Shown: positions 373-61,042 of the stretch, one piece after another | Layout: the number at the start of each line of letters is the position of its first letter | Numbering within the stretch: the stretch's first letter is position 1 | Assembly (NCBI GenBank): GCA_046593655.1 | Contig: JBKJNM010000089.1 | Location: forward strand, 3,375-67,374 | Direction: 5' to 3' | DNA length: 64,000 nt | Origin: Lacibacter sp. | GTDB lineage: Bacteria; Bacteroidota; Bacteroidia; Chitinophagales; Chitinophagaceae | Position numbers and translations under genes: made by a program | Notes under the pieces: generated by a model | The model's input: the letters and a program-made list of their open reading frames with translations, nothing else | What the model was told of the DNA's origin: nothing | Database searches by the model: none

Positions 373-457
373 AAGCTTTAGGCTGCAAGCCTTAAGCCAG
401 AAAGGAAATAATATTATTATGCCAAAAGCGCAAGCCGGCGGCTAAAAGCTAAAAGCA
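373..457. repeat. Two degenerate period-7 arrays in the rpoB-rpoC spacer
   Basis: GC dinucleotides recur at 375/382/389/396 (aagcttt aggctgc aagcctt aagccag) and at 421/428/434/441/448/455 (gccaaaa ... gctaaaa gctaaaa gc). Confidence 0.65.
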
Positions 458-466
458 ATATTTGAT

Positions 467-3400
467 ATGTCATTCAGAAAAGAGAATCGTCAAAGACCAG
501 TTTTTTCAAAAATCACTATTGGACTTGCATCTCCGGATACCATTCTGGAGCGCAGCTTTGGTGAAGTGTTAAAACCTGAAACCATAAACTACCGCACTTA
601 CAAACCAGAGCGTGATGGTTTGTTCTGCGAACGGATTTTTGGGCCGGTAAAAGATTTTGAATGTGCCTGTGGTAAATATAAGCGTATCCGTTACAAGGGT
701 ATTGTGTGCGATCGTTGCGGGGTGGAAGTAACAGAAAAGAAAGTGCGTCGTGAAAGAATGGGTCACATCAAATTAGTTGTACCTGTTGTTCATATTTGGT
801 ACTTCAAATCATTGCCAAATAAAATTGGTTACCTCTTAGGTGTAAGTTCTAAGAAGTTAGAAACCATCGTTTACTACGAACGCTATGTGGTGATTCAACC
901 AGGTGTTAAAGAAACCATGAAGATGGGTGATCTTCTTACTGAAGAAGAATACCTGGATATGCTCGATACTTTACCAAAAGATAACCAGTATTTACCTGAT
1001 GAAGATCCCATGAAATTTATCGCCAAGATGGGTGCTGAAGCGGTGCATGATATGTTGCAGCGTATTGATCTTGATCAGTTGAGTTATGATTTGCGTAATG
1101 CAGCAGCTACTGAAACCTCACAGCAACGTAAAGCAGATGCCTTAAAGCGTTTGAGCGTTGTAGAAGCTTTCCGAGATGCGAATTTAAGAATTACTAACCG
1201 CCCTGAGTGGATGGTAATGCAATACATTCCTGTTATACCACCTGAGCTGCGTCCGTTAGTTCCCTTGGATGGCGGTCGTTTTGCATCTTCTGATCTCAAT
1301 GATTTATATCGTCGTGTAATCATCCGTAATAATCGTTTGAAGCGTTTGCTTGAAATTAAAGCTCCTGAAGTAATCCTTCGGAACGAGAAACGTATGTTAC
1401 AGGAAGCAATTGATAGCTTATTTGATAACTCAAGAAAATCGAATGCTGTTAAAGCAGAAGGTGGCCGTGCATTGAAATCTTTGAGCGATGTGTTGAAAGG
1501 TAAGCAAGGTCGTTTCCGTCAGAACCTTCTTGGTAAGCGTGTTGACTATTCTGGTCGTTCAGTTATCGTTGTAGGTCCTGAATTGAAATTGCATGAGTGT
1601 GGTTTGCCAAAAGATATGGCTGCAGAATTGTTCAAGCCCTTTATCATTCGCAAATTGATTGAAAGAGGTATTGTTAAAACAGTGAAGAGTGCAAGAAAAT
1701 TAGTTGATAAGAAAGAAGCCGTTGTTTGGGATATTCTTGAAAATATATTGAAAGGTCATCCGATCATGTTGAACCGTGCCCCAACATTGCACCGTTTATC
1801 CATCCAGGCTTTTCAACCTAAGTTGATTGAAGGTAAAGCCATTCAATTGCACCCGTTGGTATGTTCTGCATTCAACGCCGATTTTGATGGTGATCAGATG
1901 GCGGTGCATGTTCCTTTGAGTAATGCGGCTGTATTAGAAGCACAGTTGTTGATGCTTGCATCACACAACATCCTCAACCCGCAGAATGGTACTCCAATCA
2001 CACTTCCTTCTCAGGACATGGTGTTGGGATTGTATTATATTTCTAAAGGAAAGAAAACTACTGATACTGAAATTGTAAAAGGAGAAGGCAAAGCATTTTA
2101 TTCACCTGAAGAAGTGATCATTGCTTATAACGAAAAACAAATTGATCTGCACGCTTGGATCAGGGTTCGCCTGAATGTGCGTGAAAACGGACAGATCGTT
2201 AATAAACTTACTGAAACAACTGTAGGTCGTGTAATCTTTAACCAGTTTGTTCCAAAAGAAGTAGGTTTTGTAAATACATTGCTTACGAAGAAAAACCTGC
2301 GTGAAATCATTGGTGATATTATTGAAATCACCAACGTTCCAAAAACTGCAAAGTTCCTGGATGATATTAAAACACTTGGTTTCCGTACTGCCTTCCAGGG
2401 TGGTTTATCGTTCAATATTAACGATCTGCTTGTTCCTGAAATAAAAGAACAGTTGGTTGAAAATGCACAAGGCGAAGTAAATGAAGTATGGGATAGTTAT
2501 AATATGGGTCTCATCACCAACAATGAACGTTATAACCAGATCATTGATATCTGGAGCCGTGTTGATACACGTGTAACAGAAACATTAATCCGTGAAATGG
2601 CCAATGATAAACAAGGATTCAACTCTGTGTTTATGATGTTGGATAGTGGAGCCCGTGGTAGCAAACAACAGGTAAAGCAGCTTGCTGGTATCAGAGGTTT
2701 GATGGCGAAGCCAAGAAAATCAGGTTCTACCGGAAGTGAGATCATTGAAAATCCTGTATTGAGCAATTTTAAAGATGGCTTGAGTGTATTGGATTATTTC
2801 ATCTCAACACATGGTGCCCGTAAAGGTTTGGCCGATACTGCCTTGAAAACAGCTGATGCCGGTTACTTAACCCGTCGTTTGGTTGACGTGGCACAGGATG
2901 TGGTGATCAAAGATGAAGATTGCGGAACACTGCGTGGTATTGCAACCAGTGCATTAAAAGATAATGAAGATGTTATAGAACCATTGAGCGATCGTATTGA
3001 AGGACGTACATCATTGCATGATGTGTATGAACCGCATTCAGATTCATTAATTGTTGCAGGAGGTTCAGAAATTTCATCAGCTATTGCCAAGCAAATTGAA
3101 GAAAGTGGTATTGAAACAGTTGAAATACGGTCTGTTTTAACCTGCGAAAGCAAGCGTGGTGTGTGTGTAAAGTGTTATGGTAAAAACCTCGCTACAGGTG
3201 CAATTGCGCAGAAAGGTGATGCAGTTGGTATCATTGCTGCACAATCAATTGGTGAACCGGGTACACAGTTAACACTTCGTACGTTCCACGTAGGTGGTGT
3301 GGCTGGTTCTGCTTCGGTTGAATCATCCTTGCCTGCAAAATTTGATGGTACTATCCAGTTTGATGGTTTACGTACTGTAAATGCAGTAAACAATGAAGGC

Positions 3401-4753
3401 AGCAAAGTTCAATTGGTTATTGGTCGTACAGGTGAAGTAAGGATCATGGATGTGAAGAATGATCGCTTGCTGATTACCAATAACATTCCTTATGGTGCAA
3501 CACTTTCTGTAAAAGAAGGTCACCAGATTAAGAAGGGTGAAATCATCTGTACATGGGATCCGTTCAATAACGTAATTGTTGCAGAAATTGCGGGTACAAT
3601 CAAATTAGAAAATATCCTGGATGGCATTACTTACCGTGAACAGGCCGATGAACAAACAGGTCACCGTGAAAAAGTAGTGATTGAAACAAAAGATAAAACA
3701 AAGATCCCTGCCATTTTAGTTGAAGGTGGTAAAGAAGTAAAATCATACAATCTTCCCGTTGGTTCACATATTGTGATTGAAGAAGGTGAACAAGTTACTG
3801 CAGGTCAGGTATTGGTGAAAATTCCACGTGTACTCGGTAAGCTTCGTGATATCACAGGTGGTCTTCCACGTGTAACTGAACTGTTTGAAGCAAGAAATCC
3901 CGGAAATCCGGCTGTTGTTTCTGAAATTGATGGAGTGGTTACGTTTGGTTCTATCAAGCGTGGTAACAGGGAAATCATCGTTACAAGTAAGGATGATGTA
4001 ACCAAGAAATATCTTGTACCTCTTACACGCCAGATCCTTGCACAGGAAGGCGATTTCATCAAAGCTGGTATTCCTTTAAGTGATGGAGCAATTGCACCTG
4101 CTGATATCTTAACGATCAAAGGGCCTTTTGCTGTACAGGAATATGTGGTGAATGAAATTCAGGAAGTATATCGTTTACAAGGTGTGCGTATTAATGATAA
4201 ACACATTGAGGTAATTGTTCGTCAAATGATGAAGAAAGTAGAGATCATTGATGCTGGTGATACGAAATTCTTAGAAGAAGACCTGGTTGATCGTTTTGAA
4301 TTTAATGAAGAGAACGATCGCATCTTCGATAAAAAAGTAGTTACAGATCCGGGTGATAGCCACAAGGTACGTCCGGGCCAGATTGTAACTGTTCGTGAAT
4401 ATCGTGAAGAGAACAGCCAGTTACGCCGTGCAGATAAAAAGCTGATTGAAGTGAGAGATGCGCATTCATCAACAGCACAACCGGTGCTGCTTGGAATCAC
4501 TAAAGCTTCACTGGGCGTACAAAGCTGGATTTCTGCCGCATCATTCCAGGAAACAACCAAGGTATTAAGCACAGCAGCTATTGAAGGTAAAACCGATGAG
4601 CTGTTAGGCTTGAAAGAAAACGTTATCACTGGTCACCCGATTCCTGCAGGTACAGGCTTGCGTGAATTTGAAAACATGATCGTTGGTAGCAAAGAAGAAT
4701 ATGAGTTACTTCTTACAACCAAAGAAGCCATGAGCTTTGATGATGAAGAATAA
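467..4753 (+). CDS. rpoC: RNA polymerase beta-prime subunit
   Basis: 1428 aa; N-terminal Zn finger (CACGKYK...CDRCGVE), catalytic [20 protein letters not shown]. Confidence 0.99.
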
Positions 4754-4775
4754 TTTATAAGATGATATAAGATGA

Positions 4776-4808
4776 GAGTTCTCCGAATATCGGAGGACTC
4801 TTTTTTTG
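4776..4808 (+). terminator. Intrinsic terminator of rpoBC
   Basis: GAGTTCTCCG-AATAT-CGGAGGACTC stem-loop followed by T8. Confidence 0.9.
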
Positions 4809-4880
4809 CTGTTAACAGTATCCTAAAACTTTATTCAATTTTTATCACTCGTTCATATTCCTTTACTTTGCCACCTGATT

Positions 4881-5492: not shown

Positions 5493-5546
5493 GGTTTCAG
5501 ATTAATCCTTATCTTCCGTTTCAATTTTTGAAACCAAATCATTGCT

Positions 5547-6956: not shown

Positions 6957-6961
6957 AAAGT

Positions 6962-7957: not shown

Positions 7958-7964
7958 AAAATAC

Positions 7965-8894: not shown

Positions 8895-8906
8895 ATAACG
8901 CTCACT

Positions 8907-19665: not shown

Positions 19666-19983
19666 ATGGACGAACAGCAACAAGCAAACCCTAACCAGCT
19701 TAATATTGAAATTACAGAAGAAGTAGCTGAAGGTGAATATGCCAATCTCGCTATTATTACGCACAGCCATGCAGAATTTGTGATTGATTTTGTGAATGTA
19801 ATGCCCGGCACCCCCAAGAGCAAAGTAAAATCAAGGATCATTTTTACACCACAACACGCCAAGCGTTTTATGAAAGCGTTGACTGAAAATATTCAACGCT
19901 TTGAACAGGCGAATGGATCTATCCGTGACCTGGAAGAAATGCAGATACCTCTCAATTTTGGCGGACCAACGGCGCAGGCTTAA
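19666..19983 (+). CDS. DUF3467 family protein
   Basis: QLNIEITEEVAEGEYANLAIITHSHAEFVIDF...KVKSRIIFTPQHAKRFMKAL. Confidence 0.85.
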   Translation: MDEQQQANPNQLNIEITEEVAEGEYANLAIITHSHAEFVIDFVNVMPGTPKSKVKSRIIFTPQHAKRFMKALTENIQRFEQANGSIRDLEEMQIPLNFGGPTAQA

Positions 19984-19984
19984 A

Positions 19985-20019
19985 TAAGTTGTAAGTGTTA
20001 AGTTGTAGGTTATAAGTGA
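19985..20019. repeat. Period-7 array (5 units)
   Basis: taagttg taagtgt taagttg taggtta taagtga. Confidence 0.8.
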
Positions 20020-21126: not shown

Positions 21127-21288
21127 TTTCAACGTCCATTAACAATTGATTGCGGGGAAATGTTTACAGTTGCGTATCTGCACTGATAATGAGTTCTGTT
21201 GATTTTGTACTTGAATAAGCGGGTTATTACACAAATGGAAGATGGCTGGGGGTGATGAAGGATATTCATTTATAAAACTGTGCAACTT

Positions 21289-24982: not shown

Positions 24983-25777
24983 ATGCAACAATACCATGCT
25001 TTACTGCAGCATATTTTAGATACAGGTGTTGAAAAAACCGATCGTACTGGAACGGGTACTAAAAGTGTATTTGGTTACCAGATGCGGTTCGATCTGGCCA
25101 AAGGATTCCCCATGGTTACAACAAAAAAAATTCATTTACGCAGCATCGTACATGAGTTACTTTGGTTTTTAAAAGGCGAAACCAATATTACCTATTTAAA
25201 AGAAAACGGAGTAGGTATCTGGAATGAATGGGCTGATGAAAACGGGGAGCTTGGTCCGGTGTATGGAAAGCAATGGCGTAGTTGGGAAGGAGCCAATGGA
25301 GTAGTGGTTGACCAGATAAAAGAGTTAATTGCGCAGATAAAAAAAAATCCAGACAGCAGAAGACTCATCATCAGTGCGTGGAATGTGGCTGAATTGCCAA
25401 AGATGGCATTGATGCCCTGTCATACTATTTTTCAATTCTATGTGGCAGATGGAAAATTAAGTTGCCAGTTATACCAACGCAGTGCTGATGTGTTTCTTGG
25501 CGTTCCATTTAATATTGCTTCCTACGCTTTACTTACGTTGATGATTGCACAGGTTTGTGACCTGGAACCGGGTGAGTTTATTCATACTTTTGGTGATGTT
25601 CATATTTACAACAATCATATGGAACAGGTGAAGCTACAGTTGAGCAGAGATTTCTTTCCCCTTCCATCCATGAAATTAAACACTGAAGTAAAAGATATTT
25701 TTGAATTTAAGTTTGAAGATTTTACCCTTGAAAATTATCAGAGTCACCCAGCAATCAAAGCGCCGGTAGCAGTTTGA
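24983..25777 (+). CDS. thyA: Thymidylate synthase
   Basis: [45 protein letters not shown]. Confidence 0.98.
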
Positions 25778-25807
25778 GTCAATATTCAACATTATTAAAT
25801 CAGAAAA

Positions 25808-26317
25808 TTGAGAATAAGTTTAATCGTTGCCGCTTCAACAAACAATGCCATTGGCAAGAGCAATCAATTGCTCTGGCATTTACCCATCGATTTGAAATTT
25901 TTCAAGAATACGACATGGGCCTTACCTGTGATCATGGGAAGAAAAACATTTGAATCGGTGGGCAGTAAGCCATTAACAGGAAGAACAAATATTGTTGTTT
26001 CACGAAAGACTGATTTAACATCGGAATTTGATCATGTTTGGTTCGCCGTTTCATTGGAGGATGCACTGGAACAATCAAAAAAACTGGAAACAAAAGAAAT
26101 CTGCATTGCCGGCGGTGCTCAAATTTATGAACAGGCAATGAGAATCGCCAATCGTATTTATATGACAAGAGTGCATGCACATTTTGAAGCAGATGCATTT
26201 TTCCCTGCTATCAATGATGCCATTTGGGAACTTACGCAGAACAAAGATTTTGAAGCAGATGAAAAACATGCTTACTCCTTTTCCATTCAGCAATGGAATA
26301 GAATAAGTGAAAAGTAA
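25808..26317 (+). CDS. folA: Dihydrofolate reductase
   Basis: IGKSNQLLWHLPIDLKFFK, VIMGRKTF, GRTNIVVS, GGAQIY; follows thyA. Confidence 0.96.
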   Translation: MRISLIVAASTNNAIGKSNQLLWHLPIDLKFFKNTTWALPVIMGRKTFESVGSKPLTGRTNIVVSRKTDLTSEFDHVWFAVSLEDALEQSKKLETKEICIAGGAQIYEQAMRIANRIYMTRVHAHFEADAFFPAINDAIWELTQNKDFEADEKHAYSFSIQQWNRISEK

Positions 26318-26389
26318 AAAGTTGAAAGTGGAAAGTTATGAGTCGATCACTTTCTCATTTCTGATTTTATATTTCTAATTTTTGATTCG
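26305..26389. repeat. Two period-7 arrays in inverted orientation
   Basis: aagtgaa aagtaaa aagttga aagtgga aagttat, then cactttc tcatttc tgatttt atatttc taatttt. Confidence 0.8.
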
Positions 26390-26393
26390 CAAC

Positions 26394-27191
26394 ATGTATT
26401 CTTCATTTCAGCTATCTATAAAATATCTCAACTATTACTTTACTGCATCTAATGGAAAGGGGCATGGTATTCATTCACCTTTTGTATTCAACCTGGTGGT
26501 TAAAATGCTGAATGATGAAACAAAATATGCTGTGTATAAAGAAATAGAAGCACAACGAATTCTGCTGCTGGGCAATAAAACCATTCTTGCAGTGGAAGAT
26601 TTTGGTGCAGGCTCAGCAAAAGGATTGAAAAAACATCGGGTAGTACAAGAGATTGCCGTTTGTTCTTTAAAAAAACCAAAGTATGCTCAACTGCTGTATC
26701 GCCTGGTTAATTATTTTCAACCAAAGCAAATAGTGGAACTGGGCACCTCATTAGGTATTACAACCGCTTACCTCGCTAAAGCCAAACAGGATGCACAGGT
26801 AATAACAATGGAAGGGTCGGCTGCTATTGCAACAATAGCTGAGTCTGTGTTTAAAAAATTACAATTGCAAAATATTCATTTGGTTACCGGCAATTTTGAT
26901 GAAACGCTACAGTCAACCATCAACCAACTCTCAACTGTTAACTTTGCATTTATTGATGGTAACCACAGGAAAGAACCCACACTAAACTATTTTCTCCAGT
27001 TGCTCGATCATGCTGATGATACAACAGTGATGGTTTTTGATGATATACATTGGAGTGAGGAAATGGAAGAAGCATGGGAAAAAATTAAACAGCATTCAGC
27101 CGTTACATTAACGATTGATTTGTTTTTTATCGGTTTAGTGTTTTTCAGGAAAGAGCAGAAAGAGAAAGAGCATTTTGTTATTCGTTTTTAA
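26394..27191 (+). CDS. Class I SAM-dependent methyltransferase
   Basis: IVELGTSLG, TMEGS, FAFIDGNH, VFDDIHWS; likely ATG at 26394. Confidence 0.85.
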   Translation: MYSSFQLSIKYLNYYFTASNGKGHGIHSPFVFNLVVKMLNDETKYAVYKEIEAQRILLLGNKTILAVEDFGAGSAKGLKKHRVVQEIAVCSLKKPKYAQLLYRLVNYFQPKQIVELGTSLGITTAYLAKAKQDAQVITMEGSAAIATIAESVFKKLQLQNIHLVTGNFDETLQSTINQLSTVNFAFIDGNHRKEPTLNYFLQLLDHADDTTVMVFDDIHWSEEMEEAWEKIKQHSAVTLTIDLFFIGLVFFRKEQKEKEHFVIRF

Positions 27192-27197: not shown

Positions 27198-28577
27198 ATG
27201 AATCTGCCAAATGCACTTATTGATTCAATTAAAAAAGTCAAAGGCTTTAACAAAGAAGCGTTTGAACAGGTGCATGCAAGTGGTGAGCAGGTAGTGTCAA
27301 TTCGAACAAACCCATTAAAGTGGTCAATGAGCCAACAGCATGGCAGTATTCACCATTCACCACTCATCATTCACTCTTCTGTTCCCTGGTCATCAAACGG
27401 CTTTTATCTCACCGAACGCCCTTCCTTTACTCTTGATCCTTTATTGCATGCCGGAGTTTATTATGTGCAGGAAGCAAGCAGTATGTTTTTAGAACAAGCC
27501 ATTTTACAAACGGTTGATGTATCGCAGCCCTTACTTGTACTTGATCTTTGTGCAGCTCCCGGTGGTAAATCCACCTTGCTGCAATCGGTTATCAGCAAAG
27601 AAAGCTTACTTGTGAGCAATGAGGTTATTCAAACAAGAGTGCATATTTTAAAAGAAAATATGATCAAATGGGGTGGCAGTAATGTGGTAGTTACCAATAA
27701 CGATCCCAGGGAATTTTCAAAACTCAAAGGATTGTTTGATGTGCTGGTAATTGATGCACCCTGCAGTGGCAGTGGATTATTTCGTCGTGACCCACAGGCG
27801 ATCAATGAATGGAGCGAAGACAATGTGCATCTCTGCAATCAGCGGCAGCAAAGGATTATAGCGGATGTATGGGATTGTTTGAAAGAAGATGGGGTGCTCA
27901 TCTATTCAACCTGTTCGTATTCTTCTGAAGAGGATGAAGAGATTCTTGATTGGATGACCGAAAAGTGGAAAGTGGAAAGTGTACAGTTAAAAGTGGAAGA
28001 CAATTGGAATATTGATGAAGTGCAATCTATAACAGGAGCTTATGGATATCGTTTCTGGCCCTACAAAGTAAAAGGGGAAGGTTTTTTTATTGCTGCATTT
28101 AAAAAGAAAGAAGAAACAGATATAGTTAAGATGAAAGTAAAGGCAATGCAACTGCCATTAAAAAATGAAACAGCTATTGCAGCAAATTGGTTACAAAAAA
28201 TTGAAGGGTTGTCATTTATTCTGCAAGGGCAGAATATTGCAGTTGTTCCAACGCAATGGAATGAGCTTATTCAATTTCTGATGCAGGTACTAAAAGTGAG
28301 GTATACAGGCGTAGAGTTAGGAACAATCGCCAAAAATGATTTACTGCCAGAACATGCATTGGCCTTATCAACCTTAGGCAACAATTCCGTTTATACAGTT
28401 GAATTGGATATTAAACAGTCATTGAATTATTTGCGCAGGAATGAAATAATGATCAGCAATGAGCATAAAGGCTGGGCATTGGTTCAATATAATGGATATT
28501 ATCTTGGATGGATAAAGATGCTGGGTAATCGCATCAATAATTACTATCCTAAAGAATGGCGCATACTCATGCGCTGA
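27198..28577 (+). CDS. rsmF: RsmB/RsmF family RNA m5C methyltransferase
   Basis: YYVQEASSM, DLCAAPGGKS, DAPCSGSG, YSTCS, RFWP; RsmF-type C-terminus (RINNYYPKEWRI). Confidence 0.85.
   Translation: MNLPNALIDSIKKVKGFNKEAFEQVHASGEQVVSIRTNPLKWSMSQQHGSIHHSPLIIHSSVPWSSNGFYLTERPSFTLDPLLHAGVYYVQEASSMFLEQAILQTVDVSQPLLVLDLCAAPGGKSTLLQSVISKESLLVSNEVIQTRVHILKENMIKWGGSNVVVTNNDPREFSKLKGLFDVLVIDAPCSGSGLFRRDPQAINEWSEDNVHLCNQRQQRIIADVWDCLKEDGVLIYSTCSYSSEEDEEILDWMTEKWKVESVQLKVEDNWNIDEVQSITGAYGYRFWPYKVKGEGFFIAAFKKKEETDIVKMKVKAMQLPLKNETAIAANWLQKIEGLSFILQGQNIAVVPTQWNELIQFLMQVLKVRYTGVELGTIAKNDLLPEHALALSTLGNNSVYTVELDIKQSLNYLRRNEIMISNEHKGWALVQYNGYYLGWIKMLGNRINNYYPKEWRILMR
27348..27377. repeat. Period-7 array inside rsmF (N-terminal linker)
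   Basis: tcaccat tcaccac tcatcat tcactct; encodes IHHSPLIIHS. Confidence 0.8.
27962..27996. repeat. Period-7 array inside rsmF (second site)
   Basis: aaagtgg aaagtgg aaagtgt acagtta aaagtgg; encodes KWKVESVQLKV. Confidence 0.8.
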
Positions 28578-28580
28578 TGT

Positions 28581-32695: not shown

Positions 32696-33706
32696 TTAGC
32701 TCCTGTATCCTCTCAAAAAATCATCAATCAGCATTTTCTTTTTTCCTTCGAGTTGTAATTCCAAAACATGGATGTAGCCATTGCTACAGGTGAATTTTAA
32801 AAATGTTTTGCTGTCGGTTAAAAACTCTCCAATAGTCTGGCCGCCTGAAGCGGCCTGACCCGCAACAACCTCTTTCTTCGACCGGTAGATCTTCATCATC
32901 TTTCCATTAAACGTTGTAAAAGCTCCGGGAAAAGGAGAGAGCCCACGTATAAGATTGTGCACTTCATCAACAGGTTTGTTGAAATCAATTTTACAGGTTT
33001 CAGTAAATATTTTGGGGGCATGTTTGAGAGGTGAATGGTGAGTGGTGAATGGTGAATGAGAGTTTGTGGTTGTAGGGTCGTTCATTGTCCATTCAGCATT
33101 GACAATTGACGACTGATCTTTTTCTTCAATCGTTCCATTAAGTAATCCGTCAATTGTTTGTAAGAGCAATTTCGCTCCAACTTCTTTCATCCGATCATGT
33201 ACTTCTCCTGCCGTTTCATCTTCACCAATTAAAAAAGATTCCTGCAGCAATATATCACCGGTATCAATTTCATGTTTGAGTTTAAAAGTAGTAACACCTG
33301 TTTCAGGTTCTCCATTTATAACCGCCCAGTTAATAGGTGCGGCACCACGGTATTGAGGTAATAAACTTCCATGTACATTAATGGTGCCCATGGGAGGCAT
33401 GTTCCAAACAACCTCGGGCAACATACGAAAAGCAACAACAATCTGCAGATCAGCTTGCAATGATTTCAGCTCTTCTAAGAATGCAGTGTTCTTTAATTTT
33501 TCCGGTTGAAGAATGTGTAAGCCATTTTCAACTGCATATTTTTTTACTGCGCTTTCATTCATCTTTAAACCACGACCGGAAGGTTTATCAGGTGCTGTAA
33601 TTACACCCGCAATTTGGTAACCTGCCTTCACCAATGCATCTAATGAAGCAACAGCAAATTCAGGAGTACCCATAAAAATAATGCTGATGGATGATTTTTC
33701 AGTCAT
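32696..33706 (-). CDS. fmt: Methionyl-tRNA formyltransferase (with two in-frame repeat-derived insertions)
   Basis: IIFMGTPEFA, VITAPDKPSGRG, INVHGSLLPQYRGAAPINWA, IRGLSPFPGA; likely start MTEK at 33706. Confidence 0.96.
   Translation of the reverse strand: MTEKSSISIIFMGTPEFAVASLDALVKAGYQIAGVITAPDKPSGRGLKMNESAVKKYAVENGLHILQPEKLKNTAFLEELKSLQADLQIVVAFRMLPEVVWNMPPMGTINVHGSLLPQYRGAAPINWAVINGEPETGVTTFKLKHEIDTGDILLQESFLIGEDETAGEVHDRMKEVGAKLLLQTIDGLLNGTIEEKDQSSIVNAEWTMNDPTTTNSHSPFTTHHSPLKHAPKIFTETCKIDFNKPVDEVHNLIRGLSPFPGAFTTFNGKMMKIYRSKKEVVAGQAASGGQTIGEFLTDSKTFLKFTCSNGYIHVLELQLEGKKKMLIDDFLRGYRS
33030..33117. repeat. Paired inverted period-7 arrays inside fmt
   Basis: ggtgaat ggtgagt ggtgaat ggtgaat ... 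cattgtc cattcag cattgac aattgac gactgat. Confidence 0.85.
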
Positions 33707-33710
33707 GCGG

Positions 33711-33718
33711 CAAATGTA
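33711..33718 (-). promoter_or_regulatory. -7 element of fmt
   Basis: TACATTTG then CCGC then ATG (4-nt gap). Confidence 0.7.
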
Positions 33719-33867
33719 AATATAGAAAGACAAAAAAGACCAATGAAAAAATGAGGGAAAGCTCCAGACTACCAGGGGTGAGCTGTAAGGAAATACATTG
33801 TTGTTTTTTTAAACCTAATTTTTTCTTTCTTGAAACGTACGCTAAAAGCAAATAGCTTTCTTTAAAT

Positions 33868-45659: not shown

Positions 45660-47555
45660 TTAATCTGTCAATTCACTCAATTCAAGCCAGCGCATTTCTT
45701 TTTCATCAAGCAGGGTTGTTATTTGAGCAATACGATTCGATAGTTTTTGTAATTCATCAAAGGGAAGGTTGCCATTATTGAGTTGATTGCTGATACTCAC
45801 CTTTTCAGCAGATAAGTTTTCAATTTCTTTCTGCAAATTTTCAAACTCTCTTTTTTCTTTAAAGTTGAATCGTTTTTTTGCCTCGATCGTTGCTGGCTGC
45901 TGTTCAATGGCAATAGTTTTCTTTTCAACCAACGGGTCACCCCTGATATCCATCATCTTTTCCTGTTCTTTTTGCCACAACCTGAGCTGTGCATAGTTGC
46001 CGGGAAAGTCTCTTACCACAGCATCGCCTTCAAACACAAACAAATGATCAACCAACCGATCCATAAAATAACGGTCGTGACTTATTATCAATAAACAGCC
46101 GGGAAATTCGCTCAAAAAATTTTCAAGTACTGCAAGTGTAGGTAGATCGAGATCATTTGTAGGTTCATCTAATATCAGGAAGTTAGGGTTGCGGAAAAGG
46201 ATAGATAATAAGTGTAATCTTCTCTTTTCTCCACCGCTTAATTTTGAGATATAAGTGTATTGTTTATCGGGATCAAATAAAAACAGTTGCAGGAATTGGG
46301 CAGCGCTTAATGAACCGCCCGATGCTAAGGGGAAATTTTCAGCGATGTCTTTTACAAATTCAATGACCCGTTTATCTTCTTTTACCTCTAATCCTTTTTG
46401 CGAATAGTTGCCGAAGATGATGGTATCACCAATATTGATTTTGCCACTATCCGGTTCTTGTATTCCCTGGATGATATCAATAAAGGTTGATTTACCTGCA
46501 CCATTCTTTCCTACCACACCAACACGTTCGCCTTTTTTAAACGTGTAATCAAATCCTGCAAGGATTTTTTTATTGCCGAAGCTTTTATAAATTTTTTTCA
46601 TCTCCACCACTTTGCCACCCAGCCTGTTCATCTTCATACTCAGTTGCACCTGCTGATCTTCAATTTGTTTTTTGGCTCTTGCTTCTACTTCATAAAAATT
46701 ATCCTGTCTGGATTTGCTTTTAGTTGTTCTTGCTTTTGGTTGTTTCCGCATCCACTCGAGTTCTTTACGGTACGTATTTTTTGCTTTGTCAATACTTGCA
46801 AGATCACTTTCAATACGGGCGGTTTTCTTTTCCAAATAGTTTTCATAATCGCCTTTGTATTCATAGAGATTATCTCCTTCCAGTTCCCATACTTCAGTAC
46901 AAACGGTATCAAGAAAATAGCGGTCGTGGGTTACAAGCAACAGTGTAATATTTTCTTTGCTCAAATAATGTTCCAGCCATTCCACCATTTCCACATCCAG
47001 ATGGTTGGTAGGTTCATCCATGATGAGGAGTACATGTTTATGATCAAAACCAATATCAATCAGTGTTCGTGCCAATGCCACCCGTTTACGCTGCCCGCCC
47101 GATAAGGTGCCTGCCAACTGCTGGAGTTCATGAACATTCAGTTTGCCCAATATCTGTTTTACTTTGCTGTCAAAGTCCCATGCATCCAGCTCATCCATTT
47201 TAATGATGGCGGCATTGAGTTTTTGCTCATCATAGTTTTCACTGATGGCTTCATATTCCTTAATGGCATTGATCACGGGATGATTGTGCTGAAAAATATT
47301 ATCAAGGATCGATTTGCTTTCATCAAACTGCGGTTCCTGTTCAAACAAAGCAATATCCACATCTTTGTTAATGCGGCATTTGCCTTCATCCGCCGTTTCT
47401 TTACCGGCCAAAATTTTTAATAAAGTTGATTTACCCGAACCATTCCTGGCAACGAGAGCAATCTTATCGCCTTCTTCAATGTGAAATGAAATACCTGAGA
47501 ACAAAGGTTGAATACCGTAACTTTTTGTTAAACCCTCAACAGAAACATAATGCAT
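45660..47555 (-). CDS. ABC-F family ATPase (Uup-like)
   Basis: Two NBDs (ARNGSGKST/LSGGQ; GKNGAGKST/LSGGE), DEPTNHLD and DEPTNDLD, C-terminal coiled coil; likely start MHYV at 47555. Confidence 0.94.
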   Translation of the reverse strand: MHYVSVEGLTKSYGIQPLFSGISFHIEEGDKIALVARNGSGKSTLLKILAGKETADEGKCRINKDVDIALFEQEPQFDESKSILDNIFQHNHPVINAIKEYEAISENYDEQKLNAAIIKMDELDAWDFDSKVKQILGKLNVHELQQLAGTLSGGQRKRVALARTLIDIGFDHKHVLLIMDEPTNHLDVEMVEWLEHYLSKENITLLLVTHDRYFLDTVCTEVWELEGDNLYEYKGDYENYLEKKTARIESDLASIDKAKNTYRKELEWMRKQPKARTTKSKSRQDNFYEVEARAKKQIEDQQVQLSMKMNRLGGKVVEMKKIYKSFGNKKILAGFDYTFKKGERVGVVGKNGAGKSTFIDIIQGIQEPDSGKINIGDTIIFGNYSQKGLEVKEDKRVIEFVKDIAENFPLASGGSLSAAQFLQLFLFDPDKQYTYISKLSGGEKRRLHLLSILFRNPNFLILDEPTNDLDLPTLAVLENFLSEFPGCLLIISHDRYFMDRLVDHLFVFEGDAVVRDFPGNYAQLRLWQKEQEKMMDIRGDPLVEKKTIAIEQQPATIEAKKRFNFKEKREFENLQKEIENLSAEKVSISNQLNNGNLPFDELQKLSNRIAQITTLLDEKEMRWLELSELTD

Positions 47556-53049: not shown

Positions 53050-53115
53050 AAACAGGTTTTAGAACTCAAATTAAGAAGATTCCATTGCTTATAATTATCA
53101 ATGGTAAAAAAACAG

Positions 53116-53964: not shown

Positions 53965-54169
53965 CTCATGTAATTTTTAGATGTATAAGTTACAATCATT
54001 TAACAGTGCTTGTTGTGCCGTTCATAAAAACAGGTGGCTGATATGCTGGAAGAAAGTCGCAATTGACCATTTGAAATGTCGGAATGGCACAGGATGAAAA
54101 TGAAGTTGCAGAAGTAGTTTTACATTCTAAGATCAAATAAGTAATTTTCAACATCAATCATCAATCAAT

Positions 54170-54547: not shown

Positions 54548-54561
54548 AATAACTGATTATA

Positions 54562-54590
54562 AAAAGCTCCTTGTAAAACAGGAGTTTTTT
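54562..54590 (+). terminator. Intrinsic terminator
   Basis: AAAAGCTCC-TTGTAAAACA-GGAGTTTTTT. Confidence 0.7.
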
Positions 54591-54661
54591 ATTGGCGGTA
54601 TTTCATTTTCGGGACTAAAAAAGTAAGTACATTCATTTCTCTTAAACTAAAATCTATTAGT

Positions 54662-55984: not shown

Positions 55985-55999
55985 AAATATTTTTTATAG

Positions 56000-58003
56000 C
56001 TAACGTATTAATAACAAAGTCCCTTTGCGTGCACTGTTCTTACCAGTTCTTTTATCTGTAAAAGATAATACCCATGTGTACATTCCTGCAGGTTGTGCAT
56101 TGCCGTTAGTTGTTCCATCCCATTTACTGTTGGTACCTGATGTTTGAAATACAGCCTGTCCATAACGATTGTACACCATCAACTGTAATTGAAGAGCTGA
56201 ATTAGTTTTCAGCGGTTCAAAAAAATCATTCAATCCATCTTTGTTGGGTGTAAATGCAGTTGGCACTGAAATGCTGCAGGATGATTCTGCTATCAAAGCA
56301 TGCGTTTTTGTAATTGTACAGCTTCCATCCTTTGCTGTAAGTGTAACCTGGTACTGTTTGTCAATATCACTGATTGGATAAAATTGAGCAGGTGGGTTTT
56401 GTATGCTGCTGGTAGTTCCGTTTCCGAAATTCCATAGCCAGCTTCCGGTGTTCGTGCTGTTGTTAATGAATACAACAGGGTCATTAGGGCAAACTTTGTT
56501 AGGAGCAGCAAAATCAATTTTTAATTTTTGTTTCAGTACAAAACTTTGTTTCGACGTATCGCTGCATACGCCGTTGCTCACAATCAATTCTGCCCAATGA
56601 GGCCCACCGGTTGCAATGGTTGCAGATAGTTGTTGCCGGTTGCTGATGCTGCTGTCAATGGTCCAGAACCAACGGTTAATTTCATTTCCTCCGGGGTGAA
56701 TAAAGTTTATCGTGTCGGTAATACATCCTTCCAATATAGAAACCCGAAATGCGGCGTTCACAGTATCTTTTATGTTGAAATTGAAGCTTGTGTTTGCAGG
56801 TGTTGAACCATTACATGCATCAATGAAGGTATTTCCATCGCTGCCATTTTTAATTGTTAGTGTATAGTTACCGGCAACTGTCAGTGGCTGTTGTAAAACT
56901 AATTCTATGTTATCAGTCATCGTATTGCTGCAATTAACCGTTGCAGCAGTAATGATTGCACTGCCGGGTCCTGTAATTAGAAAATCACTTCCATTCGCAG
57001 CTATTGAATTACAAATAATATTTTTGGATGTTTTAATTTTTAGTTTGGATGTTTGACAACCGGAGGGAACAATCGTATCTATCACTGCAAATGCAAAAAC
57101 ACTGAAAGGAATTTGGGTGTTGCCTGATACAACATTATCACATTTATCCACTAACGTGTTGCCATCAGTTCCATTTTTTACTGACAAAATATAAGAACCA
57201 TCGGGCAACGGATTTGCAAATGTGATGATAATTGAATCTGTTTCTAAACTACTATTACATTGACTGCCCGTGGCTTTGATAATGTTGCCAAGGGCCGGAG
57301 TTAAACTAAAATCTGAACCATCAGCAGCAATGCTGTTACACCTGATTTTTTTATTGAAACTGAGCGTTACCTGTTTGTTATCGCAGGAAGAAGCATTGCT
57401 ATAAATTTGCTGGTTGGCATCACTTGTAATATCAGCAGTTCCTCCATTAATTGAAAGACTAAAGCCGGTTGATCTGTCATCTATATTTCCAACCATTAAA
57501 AGATATTCATGGCCCGTTTGTAATTGAGGCATGGAACTGAAGGTTGGTTTTACACCATCCTGTGGAAGCGAACGGCACTGAATAAAATTAGCACCGTCAG
57601 ATGCAGCACCTGTACTTCCTGTAGTCCCTGACCAATTGCCTGTAACTACTAAAGTTTTATCAGTAAAAATTTCATTGGGATTACGACCGGTTATATCAAA
57701 CAACATCCAATCATAATTGTCATTTAAATTAACGGGTATAATAGTGAACGCAAAACTTCCTGCAGTGCGGCAAGTGATTTTATAATATACAGGATTGTTA
57801 TCGCCATAATTGGTGTTTTGATTCGTGCACCCGGGTACAAATAAACTGTTGTTCCTGCATGCAGGGAGTGTAGATTGAAAAAAACTGCCGTTGGAACAAA
57901 TGGCAAACGCTGTTGCCGGTGTTTGTCCGGGGAATGTGCATACCTGTGCCGGCAGTTTGGTAACTGCCAATAACAACAGGCAGATAAATACTTGTTTGCA
58001 CAT
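56000..58003 (-). CDS. T9SS type B (gliding-motility-associated CTD) surface protein with duplicated Ig-like module and PKD domain
   Basis: CTD VPTAFTPNKDGLNDFF...VYNRYG...WDGT...KGTLLLIR; PKD F.NNS...WLWNFGNG; two CNSIAA.GSDF / NG.DGNT repeats. Confidence 0.87.
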   Translation of the reverse strand: MCKQVFICLLLLAVTKLPAQVCTFPGQTPATAFAICSNGSFFQSTLPACRNNSLFVPGCTNQNTNYGDNNPVYYKITCRTAGSFAFTIIPVNLNDNYDWMLFDITGRNPNEIFTDKTLVVTGNWSGTTGSTGAASDGANFIQCRSLPQDGVKPTFSSMPQLQTGHEYLLMVGNIDDRSTGFSLSINGGTADITSDANQQIYSNASSCDNKQVTLSFNKKIRCNSIAADGSDFSLTPALGNIIKATGSQCNSSLETDSIIITFANPLPDGSYILSVKNGTDGNTLVDKCDNVVSGNTQIPFSVFAFAVIDTIVPSGCQTSKLKIKTSKNIICNSIAANGSDFLITGPGSAIITAATVNCSNTMTDNIELVLQQPLTVAGNYTLTIKNGSDGNTFIDACNGSTPANTSFNFNIKDTVNAAFRVSILEGCITDTINFIHPGGNEINRWFWTIDSSISNRQQLSATIATGGPHWAELIVSNGVCSDTSKQSFVLKQKLKIDFAAPNKVCPNDPVVFINNSTNTGSWLWNFGNGTTSSIQNPPAQFYPISDIDKQYQVTLTAKDGSCTITKTHALIAESSCSISVPTAFTPNKDGLNDFFEPLKTNSALQLQLMVYNRYGQAVFQTSGTNSKWDGTTNGNAQPAGMYTWVLSFTDKRTGKNSARKGTLLLIR

Positions 58004-58102
58004 CGTTGCCTCAAATGTAATTAATTTGTTTGGGTGATGGAGACGTCCATTTTCAAGCCAACTTTACTGAATAAAGTTTATTGACTGATGCACCGCATCA
58101 TC

Positions 58103-58134
58103 AAAAAAGTCCCGCATCAAATGCAGGATTTTTT
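58103..58134. terminator. Terminator downstream of gcvP
   Basis: AAAAAAGTCCCGCAT-CAA-ATGCAGGATTTTTT. Confidence 0.75.
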
Positions 58135-58159
58135 GCTTTTTATTTTGTATCAATTGTTG

Positions 58160-61042
58160 TTATACTTCTTCTTCTGCATAGCTGCTTACAGGTTCACAAG
58201 TACAAATTAAATTCCTGTCGCCATATGTATTGTTGATTCTTGAAACACTGGGCCAGAATTTATTTTGTGTAACATAAAATAAAGGAAACGCAGCCTGCTG
58301 TCTTGTGTAAGCATGATTCCACTCATCAGCAGTAACAACAAATTGTGTATGTGGGGCTTGCTTTAAGGGGTTGTCAGTTTTATCAGCTTTACCTTCTTCA
58401 ATATCCCTGATCTCCTGGCGAATACTCAGCATTGCATCACAAAAACGATCGAGTTCTGCTTTGTCTTCACTTTCTGTTGGTTCAATCATAATGGTACCGG
58501 CAACAGGAAAGCTCATAGTTGGTGCGTGAAAGCCATAATCAATTAAACGTTTGGCTACATCTTCTGCTTCAATACCTGCAGTGTTTTTAAACGGACGAAG
58601 ATCAACAATAAATTCGTGTGCACAGGTGCCATGCTCATCCGTATATAAAATTTCAAAATCTTTTTCCAATCTTACTTTCATATAATTGGCATTCAGGATT
58701 GCAAACTCTGTTGCTTTCTTTACACCAACTGTACCTAACAAACGGATATAGGCATAGCTAATGAGTAAGATAGAAGCAGAACCATAAGGAGCAGCGGAGA
58801 CGGCACCCTGAGGCTCTGACGACTGACGATTTACGACTGACGTGTGACCAGGTAAATGCGCCGCAAGATGCTTCTTCACACAAATAGGCCCCATGCCAGG
58901 GCCGCCGCCACCGTGTGGAATAGCAAATGTTTTATGCAGATTCAAATGACAAACATCGGCACCAATTAATCCGGGTGATGTTAAACCAACCTGTGCATTC
59001 ATGTTAGCGCCATCCATATAAACCTGTCCGCCATGCTGATGAACGATCTCACAAATTTCTTTTACAGTTTCTTCAAAAATGCCAAATGTACTTGGGTAAG
59101 TGATCATGGTTCCTGCAAGGTTGGCGCTATGTTGTTCAGCTTTTGCTTTAAAGTCGGCTACATCAATATATCCATTCTCCAATGCTTTCACTACTACTAC
59201 TTTCATTCCCGCCATTACTGCACTTGCAGGATTGGTTCCATGTGCTGAAACAGGAATGAGCATAATTTTACGATGTGCATCACTGTTCGCTAAATGATAA
59301 TTACGAATGGCAAGCAATCCTGCATACTCTCCTTGTGCACCGCTGTTGGGTTGCAGACTGCAGGCATCAAAACCGGTTATCTCAACAAGGTATGCCGACA
59401 GTTCATCAATGATCTGCTGATAACCTTCTGTTTGATTGGCAGGAGTGAAGGGATGAATCTTACTCCAATGTGCCCAGCTTAGTGGCATCATTTCAGTAGC
59501 AGCATTCAGTTTCATAGTACAACTGCCAAGTGATATCATGGATGTATTCAATGAAAGATCTTTGTTTTCCAGTTGCTTGATGTAACGCATCATCTGGCTT
59601 TCACTGTTATGAGTATTGAAGTTGGGGTGTGTTAAGAATTTACTCGTACGTGCAAGTACAACAGGAATATGTTGCAGAATAGTTTCTTCATCAATGGTGA
59701 AATGTACAGGGTCTGTATCATTTACAAAACAGTTGATAAGATCATACAAATCTTCGATGTTCGTTGTTTCATCAATGGAAATACCAATCGTTTGCTCATT
59801 GATATAACGCAGATTAATTTCCTGCCGTTCTGCTTTTGCTTTGATGGCCGTAATATCTTTTACTTTCACCGCAATCGTATCAAAGAAGAAATCACTCAAC
59901 AGTTCAAATCCTTTTTCTTTAATGGCCTCAGCAACCGTTTGTGTAAGCAATGAAACTCTGCTGGCAATAGCAGTTAAACCATGCGGACCATGATATACGG
60001 CATACATTGCCGCCATGTTAGCGAGCAGTGCTTGTGCAGTGCAAATATTTGAAGTTGCTTTTTCACGTTTAATGTGTTGCTCTCTGGTTTGCAGGGCCAT
60101 GCGAAGAGCACGGTTGTTTTGAGCATCAATACTCACACCAATAATACGTCCGGGAATGGAGCGTTTAAATTCATCTTTGGTAGTAAAGAACGCAGCATGT
60201 GGCCCGCCATAACCCAGTGGAACACCAAAACGTTGCGCCGATCCAAATGCTACATCAGCACCCAATTCTCCGGGAGGAGTGATTAAAGTTAATGCAAGCA
60301 GGTCGGTTGCCATGGCAACAAAACCACCTTCAATTTGAATTTTTTGAATAAACTTACGGTAATCTTCAACCGAACCAATATTGTTGGGGTATTGGAGTAA
60401 TGCTCCGAAATAGCTGCTGTCAATTGCTGCTGTTTTATAATCACCAAAAACAATATCAATTCCAAGTGGAGTTGCACGGGTAATGAGTACATCTTTTGTT
60501 TGAGGGAAAACTTCATCATCCACAAAAAACCTGGGGGCATTAATCAGCTCTGTTTTGTTTACATGATGAAACAACATGTTCATTGCTTCAGCAGCAGCAG
60601 TAGCTTCATCCAATAAAGAGGCATTTGCAATTGGTAATCCGGTTAAGTCCGACACCATGGTTTGGAAGTTGAGTAAACTTTCCAGGCGGCCCTGTGAAAT
60701 TTCGGCCTGGTAGGGAGTGTACTGAGTGTACCAACCCGGGTTTTCAAACACATTTCTCAGAATCACACTAGGTGTGATGGTATCATAATATCCCTGACCC
60801 AGGTAGCTTTTATATAACTTATTTGTGAACGAAACTTCTTTCAGATGTTTTAGGAGGTCGGCCTCGCTTAATGCATCAGGTAAATTGAGCAGGTGTTGCT
60901 GACGGATGGAAGCCGGAACTGTTTTGCTGATGAGTTCTTCCATATTCCTAACCCCAATTGTTTTCAAAAGCTGCTGTTCTGCGCCAATGGTGCCGATATG
61001 ACGCTTGGTAAATTCATTTTGCTGTGCTTCAAAAAGATTCAT
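58160..61042 (-). CDS. gcvP: Glycine dehydrogenase (glycine cleavage P protein)
   Basis: YTPYQAEISQGRLESLLNFQT, KATSNICTAQALLA, LGSCTMKLN, PLP-site HLNLHKTF, PTESEDKAELDRF. Confidence 0.98.
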   Translation of the reverse strand: MNLFEAQQNEFTKRHIGTIGAEQQLLKTIGVRNMEELISKTVPASIRQQHLLNLPDALSEADLLKHLKEVSFTNKLYKSYLGQGYYDTITPSVILRNVFENPGWYTQYTPYQAEISQGRLESLLNFQTMVSDLTGLPIANASLLDEATAAAEAMNMLFHHVNKTELINAPRFFVDDEVFPQTKDVLITRATPLGIDIVFGDYKTAAIDSSYFGALLQYPNNIGSVEDYRKFIQKIQIEGGFVAMATDLLALTLITPPGELGADVAFGSAQRFGVPLGYGGPHAAFFTTKDEFKRSIPGRIIGVSIDAQNNRALRMALQTREQHIKREKATSNICTAQALLANMAAMYAVYHGPHGLTAIASRVSLLTQTVAEAIKEKGFELLSDFFFDTIAVKVKDITAIKAKAERQEINLRYINEQTIGISIDETTNIEDLYDLINCFVNDTDPVHFTIDEETILQHIPVVLARTSKFLTHPNFNTHNSESQMMRYIKQLENKDLSLNTSMISLGSCTMKLNAATEMMPLSWAHWSKIHPFTPANQTEGYQQIIDELSAYLVEITGFDACSLQPNSGAQGEYAGLLAIRNYHLANSDAHRKIMLIPVSAHGTNPASAVMAGMKVVVVKALENGYIDVADFKAKAEQHSANLAGTMITYPSTFGIFEETVKEICEIVHQHGGQVYMDGANMNAQVGLTSPGLIGADVCHLNLHKTFAIPHGGGGPGMGPICVKKHLAAHLPGHTSVVNRQSSEPQGAVSAAPYGSASILLISYAYIRLLGTVGVKKATEFAILNANYMKVRLEKDFEILYTDEHGTCAHEFIVDLRPFKNTAGIEAEDVAKRLIDYGFHAPTMSFPVAGTIMIEPTESEDKAELDRFCDAMLSIRQEIRDIEEGKADKTDNPLKQAPHTQFVVTADEWNHAYTRQQAAFPLFYVTQNKFWPSVSRINNTYGDRNLICTCEPVSSYAEEEV
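58814..58841. repeat. Period-7 array inside gcvP
   Basis: ctctgac gactgac gatttac gactgac; encodes SVVNRQSSE in a variable loop. Confidence 0.65.

Follow-up and report, generated by a model that had tools for sequence, protein, structure and literature searches.

The 64,000-nt stretch of DNA analysed here (referred to as the window; Lacibacter sp., assembly GCA_046593655.1, contig JBKJNM010000089.1, positions 3,375 to 67,374) carries arrays of tandem 7-nt units (heptamer arrays), which lie both between genes and in frame within housekeeping genes. These arrays are probably the gene-less, mostly decayed arms of hairpin cassettes similar to the intervening sequences (IVS) of rRNA, accompanied by solitary arrays similar to the short tandemly repeated repetitive (STRR) sequences of cyanobacteria. 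The complete hairpin form encloses a small gene for a four-helix-bundle protein of the TIGR02436/PF05635 family, and the association between gene and arms holds in three independent sequence sets. Enrichment of period-7 arrays, presence or absence together with turnover of units at orthologous sites, complementarity of the arms kept through changes of unit, and decay of the gene with the arms left behind were all observed. The heptamer process turns over rapidly and spans the sampled Chitinophagaceae and, in the samples of four-helix-bundle (IVP-like) genes, other phyla too.

Within the window, the arrays take the form of an intergenic arm pair (folA-methyltransferase spacer), an in-frame arm pair (Fmt interdomain linker) and a lone 3' arm (RsmF loop). 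Solitary or fixed-length arrays are located at a second site of RsmF, in the GcvP loop, in the methyltransferase gene and 3' of the DUF3467 gene, and the thyA-folA spacer and the spacer downstream of rsmF are empty sites (Table 1).

Four-helix-bundle genes between heptamer arms

Relatives of the window were represented by 80 loci (rsmF with 10 kb on either side, 1.28 Mb in total; labelled L001 and so on). The smallest open reading frames (ORFs) with arrays at both ends in these loci were found to encode four-helix-bundle proteins, which matched TIGR02436 (45.8-95.5 bits, cutoff 24) and PF05635 and had 2rld, deposited with five chains, as the nearest solved structure. Members of this family were originally recognised within intervening sequences of 23S rRNA, and the Avd protein of diversity-generating retroelements (DGRs) belongs to it. 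A sequence-only reading of the window had tentatively mentioned 7-mer arrays around IVP-like genes in Bacteroidota, and had supposed that arrays elsewhere might flank one small ORF family. Such arrays were confirmed both in the relatives and in the independent metagenome sample described below, and the ORF family is TIGR02436/PF05635. The same reading had also named GxxExxY genes, for which no support was obtained, no ORF of 70-200 aa with this motif and arrays at both ends being present in the loci examined. As it had further stated, no TIGR02436/PF05635 homologue was detected in the window (tblastn with two subfamilies); the window copies are therefore only gene-less relatives of the cassette and not full members.

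Seventeen cassettes with the order thyA-gene-folA were compared, and their arms were 83-100% complementary while the unit changed between AATGAAG, AAATAAG and AAATGTA. Decay of the gene was seen at L009 (7131-7226), where only the last 32 codons and the 3' arm are left, and at L031 (2128-2463), where the gene has an internal stop. Of the earlier proposal of a small non-autonomous repeat element or its scar, the scar was thus recovered in relatives, and a conserved element was not, since no consensus extends beyond the units; mobility of such an element found no backing either, with no transposase implicated and no target-site duplication visible at the junctions inspected by eye.

An alignment of the relatives' four-helix-bundle proteins was used as the query for an independent metagenome scan, from which 80 loci were obtained, 74 of them with enough flanking sequence. 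Strict lag-7 arrays were located within 150 nt of the gene upstream in 38, downstream in 38 and on both sides in 24 of the 74 loci, and lags of 5, 6, 8, 9 and 10 gave 0-1. The two flanks were inverted-complementary at 13/14 or better in 55/74 loci versus 2/54 displaced controls, with ungapped stems of 26 nt in the median and up to 69 nt. Within the arms, autocorrelation peaked at lags 7 and 14 (0.695 and 0.693, respectively) and was 0.25-0.33 at other lags. None of 99 neighbouring ORFs had arrays at both ends. In the 5' arm C is scarce and purines prevail, their share exceeding 60% in 26/45 and falling below 40% in 1/45; since either strand of a palindrome has the same sequence, this polarity is genuine. 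Telomerase-like addition from a single template at breaks would give purine-rich 5' arms and was considered for this reason; a single template was excluded because many different units coexist in one genome.

Among 72,556 plasmids searched by tblastn, 18 matches were obtained, all cyanobacterial, and 6-7 of the eight genes inspected were flanked by heptamer arrays, mostly inverted. In three of the cyanobacterial plasmids (L164, L166 and L167), the four-helix-bundle genes are situated within CRISPR-cas operons (cas6/cas4, cas10/cmr3). Neither a reverse transcriptase gene nor template/variable repeats adjoined the four-helix-bundle genes examined.

Filled and empty states of orthologous spacers

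The thyA-folA spacer was compared in 36 relatives. It was empty (-4 to 30 nt), occupied by gene-less head-to-head arrays (62-84 nt) or occupied by a TIGR02436 gene between inverted heptamer arms (510-609 nt). The folA-methyltransferase spacer was empty in 5 loci, carried the 3' arm alone in several, and held gene-less pairs in the window (65 nt) and about ten relatives, with orthologous right arms in L001-L012, L043 and L070. At L063 the same spacer contains a TIGR02436 gene inside AAATGTA/TTTTACA arms, and at L043 the same arms occur without the gene. Downstream of rsmF the spacer is 3 nt in the window, L001, L002 and L004 and 2 nt in L011, and in L003, L006, L007 and L009 it is filled with heptamer-array modules of 75-165 nt, AYTCAYC units included. 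Of the relatives' arrays, 33/262 had an inverted partner (13/14 or better) no more than 110 nt away, versus 1-2 in two controls. The filled and empty orthologous sites that the earlier reading had foreseen were therefore encountered, along with sites carrying different units; orthologous sites are polymorphic in length and unit and sporadic in presence.

An unrelated insert of about 100 nt, resembling a miniature inverted-repeat transposable element (MITE), was noted in the thyA-folA spacers of L001, L005, L008, L011, L034, L060 and L080, at the position taken by heptamer cassettes in other relatives. It is bounded by CCCCTAAAGGGG / CCCCTTTAGGGG hairpins (e.g. L001 262-373), and 14 such ends were counted in the loci and 0 in the window.

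In-frame arrays and their orthologues

The RsmF loop, flanked by the conserved motifs NPLK and VPW, measured 54-141 nt in 22 orthologues, mostly with heptamer arrays. In relatives it often consists of (GGTGAAT/GGTCAAT)n as the 5' arm and (ATTCACC/ACTCATC)n as the 3' arm, with a 23-nt stem in L012, and more distant relatives have other units (ATCGTAC, AAAAATT, TATCCAT, CAATGCT) at the same position. By this comparison, the window RsmF loop would be the sole remaining 3' arm of a hairpin insert of which the 5' arm is still present in relatives. An in-frame array has to lack stops in every one of the three frames; coding 5' arms probably alternate GGTGAAT with GGTCAAT because (GGTGAAT)n hits TGA in the third frame, and they are therefore imperfectly complementary to ATTCACC.

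The Fmt interdomain linker measured 69-162 nt in 49 orthologues, the short forms reading PQ..(2-6 aa)..LKHAPKI. Long linkers consist of two arms, which are frequently complementary and change together between lineages, as in GTCGTGA/TCACGAC (L039), GGTGAAT/ATTCACC (L012) and CCACAGT/ACAGTGG (L008). Some of the inserts fold as long hairpins (z = -5.4 for L039 and -5.3 for L036; z = -2.2 to -2.6 for L012, L009 and L006), and those of other relatives, like that of the window (z = -1.0), do not. The in-gene hairpins look like structures that are born and then decay rather than structures that are maintained. A hairpin function of the window copies was dropped after RNA folding of six window sites (z = -1.0 to +0.4). 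Concerted evolution of the fmt and rsmF arms within genomes was also rejected: the dominant unit variant is shared in about 4/6 genomes by eye, which is non-significant with four transition variants.

Compared with E. coli Fmt, the window protein is longer by 24 aa, placed exactly in the linker, in agreement with the earlier view that the in-frame arrays occupy permissive loops and linkers and create new peptide sequence. By alignment, both the Fmt linker and the RsmF loop hold in-frame insertions at permissive sites of a conserved protein that are absent from orthologues. The second RsmF site is array-derived coding sequence of fixed length: many orthologues are 7-periodic there (AAGGTTG type, three frames giving KVEGLRL), and L014 has the unit CTGTCAA at equal length.

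Near-identical copies of the window sequence were present in the soil metagenome runs X1-X4, and relatives at about 90-95% identity in runs X5-X7; all runs found to contain the sequence are DNA metagenomes. In X5-X7, the fmt insert keeps its length, scattered deletions have removed about 20 nt from the folA-methyltransferase arrays, and the rsmF array is longer by an in-frame insertion of 21 nt after 27353; contigs also end at the arrays. Contigs of X1 and X2, both from one population, showed no repeat-number indel, although rare variants are masked in contigs. Phase switching is disfavoured by the position of the coding arrays in housekeeping genes, where the reading frame is preserved.

Other small repeats were noted at these sites. 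The insertion at 27353 is in X5 and X7 a 21-nt palindrome, CACCTGCCTGCCAGTAGGGAG, and a near-identical one, CCTGCCTGCCGGTAGGCAGG, is located at 2221 of L038, in the thyA-folA spacer amid A-rich heptamer-like repeats; the sequences suggest that very small elements nest within arrays. The window lacks a further dispersed repeat, CATCTCGACTTCGCTCGATG-N13-CCTTCGACTTCGCTCAGG, which is about 55 nt long. L004 (10124-10175), L006 (10172-10225) and L007 (4938-4990) carry it in the RsmF loop, in frame and with the peptide STSL..PSTSLRA, and L009 (11420-11470) and L042 (6244/6365) carry it in intergenic DNA; heptamer arrays adjoin it in the loops of L006 and L007 and in the L009 spacer.

Period-7 signal in the window and its relatives

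Arrays were counted as local segments with high self-identity at a given lag, with four window/threshold settings and with dinucleotide shuffles as the null. The window yielded 11-18 lag-7 arrays versus a shuffle mean of 0.8-4.2 (shuffle maximum 3-7). Lags of 4, 5, 8, 10, 11 and 13 were at the shuffle level, lag 14 rose together with lag 7, and lags that are multiples of 3 were mildly raised, as is expected of coding sequence. A 50-kb E. coli control contained 2 lag-7 segments versus 10 in the first 50 kb of the window. In the relatives' loci 259 lag-7 arrays were counted versus about 14 in simulated sequence, and lag 14 gave 200; lags of 4, 5, 10, 11, 13 and 17 were at background, and lags of 8 and 16 and multiples of 3 were raised few-fold. 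These arrays were 30-100 nt long, with highly diverse units that drift along a single array. About 46% of them lie in or across non-coding DNA, which is roughly 10% of the sequence, and 146 lie wholly within ORFs.

Single sites were assessed by the number of equally good segments expected in a 64-kb second-order Markov sequence. Strong sites (0.0-0.2 expected) were 19985-20019, 26305-26345, 26909-26943, 27348-27377, 27962-27996, 33030-33064 and 33076-33117, and moderate ones were 26346-26389 (1.75 expected) and 58814-58841 (0.85 expected). At chance level were 54154-54167 (6 expected), 373-400 and 25779-25806 (50 each), 45887-45918 (310) and 21130-21150 (560); 421-457 as a whole was non-significant (8.4 expected), with only 441-456 consisting of 2.3 exact GCTAAAA copies. 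Seven to nine of the sites first listed are significant. The sequence-only reading, which required a lag-7 signal above that of shuffled sequence, was thus right in general and for its core sites; five of its twelve sites are at chance level, and the strong array at 26909-26943 was missing from its list. Tandem Repeats Finder (TRF) assigned a period of 7 or 14 and 2.9-5.3 copies to the arrays at 26318, 26351, 27348, 27962, 33030 and 58816, and a layout in rows of seven likewise showed units arranged head to tail. The chance-level site at 373-400, between rpoB and rpoC, was observed to be a 10-bp imperfect palindrome, GCTTTAGGCT / AGCCTTAAGC, that is, a plain hairpin with no period-7 array. The GCTAAAA unit of 441-456 is also the unit of the arrays in the Pseudanabaena plasmid L166.

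The likenesses between sites that had been reported from the letters alone were reproduced. Positions 27348-27374 of rsmF match the reverse complement of fmt 33031-33057 at 26/27, TGACGACTGA occurs exactly at both 33107 (fmt) and 58817 (gcvP), and AAAGTGG-type units are present 3' of folA and within rsmF. These matches reflect shared repeat units, the arrays being built of the same unit. The AYTCAYC unit family is found at unlinked sites (rsmF, fmt and an intergenic spacer). The two sites described as clearly head-to-head, 26301-26389 and 33023-33117, were likewise recovered as such.

In metagenomes X2 and X5, contig word depth rises from about 10-30 to 1,600-3,200 at the (GGTGAAT)n array 33006-33073, about 76 contigs with differing flanks were found, and assemblies break there. 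From the jump in depth and the many flanks, the (GGTGAAT)n family is therefore very abundant in the X2/X5 communities.

Table 1. Heptamer arrays, empty sites and genes of the window (lag-7, self-identity at an offset of 7 nt)
Feature	Position	Strand	Units or content	Period-7 evidence	Remarks
Weak array 5' of rpoC start	441-468	+	GCTAAAA x2.3	TRF, 100% match	
Solitary intergenic array	19984-20019	+	TAAGTTG TAAGTGT TAAGTTG TAGGTTA TAAGTGA	lag-7 20/28; TRF period 14	directly 3' of the DUF3467 gene stop
thyA-folA spacer, essentially empty	25778-25807	+	30 nt	period-7 signal at chance level	
folA-methyltransferase spacer, 5' purine-rich arm	26301-26345	+	AAGTGAA AAGTAAA AAGTTGA AAGTGGA AAGTTAT	lag-7 24/34; TRF	overlaps folA stop at 26315-26317
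folA-methyltransferase spacer, 3' pyrimidine-rich arm	26346-26389	+	TCACTTT CTCATTT CTGATTT TATATTT CTAATTT TTGATTC	lag-7 21/37	extends into methyltransferase gene start
Methyltransferase-gene array, in frame	26909-26943	+	TCAACCA-type; peptide QSTINQLSTVN	lag-7 20/28	
RsmF N-terminal loop array, in frame	27342-27379	+	ATTCACC x4; peptide IHHSPLIIHS	lag-7 17/23; 0.05 expected	
RsmF site 2, in frame	27952-27998	+	AAAGTGG x5; peptide EKWKVESVQLKVE	lag-7 21/28	
rsmF/downstream-gene convergent spacer, empty	28578-28580		3 nt		
fmt 3' arm	33023-33064	-	sense ATTCACC ATTCACC ACTCACC ATTCACC; peptide HSPFTTHHSPL	lag-7 21/28	AYTCAYC pattern, 6 matches vs 0.29 expected
fmt 5' arm (sense strand), in frame in Fmt interdomain linker	33076-33117	-	TCAGTCG TCAATTG TCAATGC TGAATGG ACAATGA	lag-7 22/35	
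GcvP loop array, in frame	58814-58848	-	GTCAGTC/GTAAATC; peptide SVVNRQSS	lag-7 15/21; TRF	unit family common to fmt 5' arms of window and relatives
rpoB, 3' end	within window				coding content
rpoC	start 467				preceded by the weak GCTAAAA array
DUF3467 (Pfam) gene	19666-19983				
thyA	24983-25777				
folA	25808-26317				
Class I methyltransferase gene	26382-27191				
rsmF	27198-28577				
fmt	32696-33733	-			
gcvP	58160-61042	-			
ABC-F protein gene	within window				

Evaluation of the evidence

Several observations weigh against derivation of the window arrays from gene-bearing cassettes. The arm pairs of the window are poorly complementary (at best 10/14 at 26301-26389 and 12/14 at 33023-33117) and fold no better than shuffles, the former (z = -0.85) with a short central stem only and the latter with z = -1.0. 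Neither target-site duplications nor conserved termini were visible by eye at the filled/empty junctions examined (rsmF downstream, thyA-folA and folA-methyltransferase). RsmF site 2 has no length polymorphism, being 75 nt in all 22 orthologues, and none is apparent for the GcvP loop, which is probably as long as that of E. coli. In the metagenome loci, 45/156 arrays, about 29 per 100 kb, are more than 200 nt from the gene, and arrays therefore also exist independently of cassettes. The arrays of L166 are long and direct, not inverted, namely (AAAGCTA)x14 and (AAAGCCA)x10. The window arms are linked to cassettes by orthology with relatives' sites and by shared geometry, and a direct match to a gene-bearing cassette exists only at the folA-methyltransferase site; the link of fmt and rsmF is by analogy, because no gene-bearing state is possible there. 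The 80 relatives' loci are one syntenic region, by which their counts are partly pseudo-replicated, and statistics of array position relative to starts and stops were set aside on this ground.

The main rival, possible if somewhat improbable, is that the arrays are pure simple-sequence repeats produced by a 7-nt slippage bias and by template switching at quasi-palindromes, with no element at all and with the TIGR02436 genes as mere lodgers. It agrees with the gradual drift of units along arrays, with the distance of many arrays from four-helix-bundle genes and with the lack of visible target-site duplications. Nearly all orthologues of the fmt linker and the rsmF loop are period-7 with their own unit, even the short 'empty' ones of L067, L054 and L022, and the fmt 5' arm has apparently grown from a conserved local seed, CAGTCGTCAAT; growth in situ in 7-nt steps is a live alternative. 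Heptanucleotides are given as the commonest long simple-sequence class in prokaryotes, for which polymerase slippage has already been proposed (Mrazek 2007, as cited in PMC4679880 and PMC4692102). Slippage alone, however, does not account for mirror arms at 55/74 TIGR02436 genes versus 0/99 neighbouring ORFs, for the purine-rich polarity of the 5' arm (26/45 versus 1/45) or for the recurrence of unit families at unlinked sites, namely AYTCAYC, and (GGTGAAT)n at very many metagenome loci.

That the arrays are cis elements selected by the host (terminators, sites for RNase III or mRNA stability, translational leaders, or protein-binding sites spaced by 7 nt) is quite unlikely. The share of intergenic and boundary arrays given above, many abutting stops or starts, the persistence of arm complementarity across lineages, and arrays in which a conserved core of 4-5 nt is combined with 2-3 variable positions, like iterated binding sites, would fit such a role, and binding of S1, Csp or CsrA has been proposed for TAACTGA repeats (PMC4679880). 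Orthologous sites are nevertheless often empty at no apparent cost, units vary at a given site, the window arrays do not fold, the in-frame copies decay, and the positional statistics suffer from the pseudo-replication just mentioned. A classical MITE (a non-autonomous transposon whose terminal inverted repeats are acted on by a transposase from another locus of the genome) is very improbable indeed. Inverted arms, presence or absence at orthologous sites, dispersed unit families and the entry of other small repeats into the same spacers are all features that a MITE would share; against it, the arm unit and length vary by site and lineage with no consensus beyond the unit, no target-site duplication is visible by eye, and no transposase is associated in the loci examined.

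Comparison with known systems

STRR heptamers were reportedly described by Mazel in 1990 in heterocystous cyanobacteria. The comparison with them that the sequence-only reading had drawn is apt: like STRR and long simple sequence repeats (LSSR), the arrays here consist of tandem 7-nt units, belong to several families per genome, are mostly intergenic and are strongly over-represented, and cyanobacterial four-helix-bundle genes were found in the present analysis to be flanked by such arrays. Unlike STRR, they are short (4-6 units), degenerate, often in inverted pairs, in frame in housekeeping genes and located in Chitinophagaceae. A link of STRR to a gene family was not found in the literature searched.

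IVS of 23S rRNA with an IVP ORF (PF05635) are said to have been reported by Ralph and McClelland in 1993 from Leptospira and others. The cassettes are similar in that inverted repeats with a long stem enclose a PF05635/TIGR02436 ORF or none, in their sporadic occurrence among strains and in being tolerated in an essential transcript; they differ in residing in mRNA operons, in spacers between genes and in protein-coding loops instead of in rRNA. We know of no description of rRNA IVS arms as heptamer-periodic. The Rickettsia palindromic elements (RPE), reportedly described by Ogata in 2000, are palindromic inserts as well; they lengthen conserved housekeeping proteins by peptide segments, in frame and at surface positions that are permissive. 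RPE form conserved consensus families of about 100-150 bp; nothing beyond heptamer units and geometry is common to the inserts found here.

Small dispersed repeats of Nostoc were reportedly described by Elhai in 2008. These repeats, together with the repetitive extragenic palindromic (REP) sequences of the REP/REPIN-RAYT systems and the mosaics of bacterial interspersed mosaic elements (BIMEs) (PMC3116915), resemble the arrays as short, hairpin-forming, dispersed repeats in mosaic clusters at hot-spot spacers and in having tiny nested elements, here the 21-nt palindrome and the 55-nt repeat. Unlike REP/REPIN, the arrays have no RAYT-like transposase and no fixed palindrome sequence. PF05635 is listed for the DGR accessory protein Avd (PMC10053308), a homologous small four-helix-bundle protein of the same Pfam family.

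Direct repeats of the heptamer TAACTGA have been described in Beggiatoaceae, Cyanobacteria and five Bacteroidetes (MacGregor 2015, PMC4679880). They resemble the present arrays in lying beside start codons and occasionally in ORFs, in their absence at the same site in relatives and in the admixture of other heptamers, and they differ in having one unit, an essentially direct arrangement (with one 'indirect' set), no link to four-helix-bundle genes and a proposed translational role. In a full-text search, no literature was found that ties heptamer arrays to four-helix-bundle genes or that reports copies, in frame or otherwise, in Chitinophagaceae.

Proposed mechanism and significance

If the window arrays are gene-less cassette arms, replication slippage in 7-nt steps would lengthen and shorten them, and the complementarity of the arms may be kept by hairpin-templated repair or by selection for the stem. 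Insertion into an operon might be made harmless by the RNA stem, by analogy with rRNA IVS, which are cut by RNase III. Arms would be expected to decay once the stem no longer matters, and the copies that survive within genes would be those that are free of stops, a multiple of 3 nt long and placed in permissive loops.

A rather doubtful extension is that TIGR02436 proteins act as the trans-acting partner of the hairpins, binding the cores spaced by 7 nt and maybe building, copying or maintaining the arms, so that gene and arms form a selfish cassette. If this is true, rRNA (as IVS), operons (thyA-folA, cas) and, for gene-less forms, protein-coding loops would all be sites that the cassette colonises in Bacteroidota and Cyanobacteriota, and the decades-old STRR heptamers would be given an origin.

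The statistical excess of heptanucleotide repeats, noted from about 1990 for the STRR of cyanobacteria and from 2007 in surveys across prokaryotes, has been treated as an unexplained oddity. Genomes very commonly contain four-helix-bundle 'IVP' genes, to which, to our knowledge, no role has been assigned outside DGRs. The present data join the two and show that gene-less arms can enter essential enzymes in frame, giving lineages peptide segments of their own. Should the link be causal, it would define a new class of small genetic element and yield a testable hypothesis for TIGR02436 function; it would also account for one source of hypervariable linkers in conserved proteins and point to one reason why assemblies of Bacteroidota and cyanobacterial metagenomes break. 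If it is non-causal, the window would be an ordinary further genome with STRR-like repeats.

Host and other repeats of the window

The window has a G+C content of about 39%. Its RsmF is 81% identical to the homologue of a Chitinophagaceae metagenome-assembled genome and 69-74% identical to those of Lacibacter spp. By these identities the host, a soil bacterium, belongs to the Chitinophagaceae and is near Lacibacter. The strongest tandem repeat of the window is formed by units of 9 and 18 nt at 62373-62475, which have no relation to the heptamers and lie within the gene for a collagen-like Gly-X-Y protein (Pfam Collagen; 61889-62602, minus strand).

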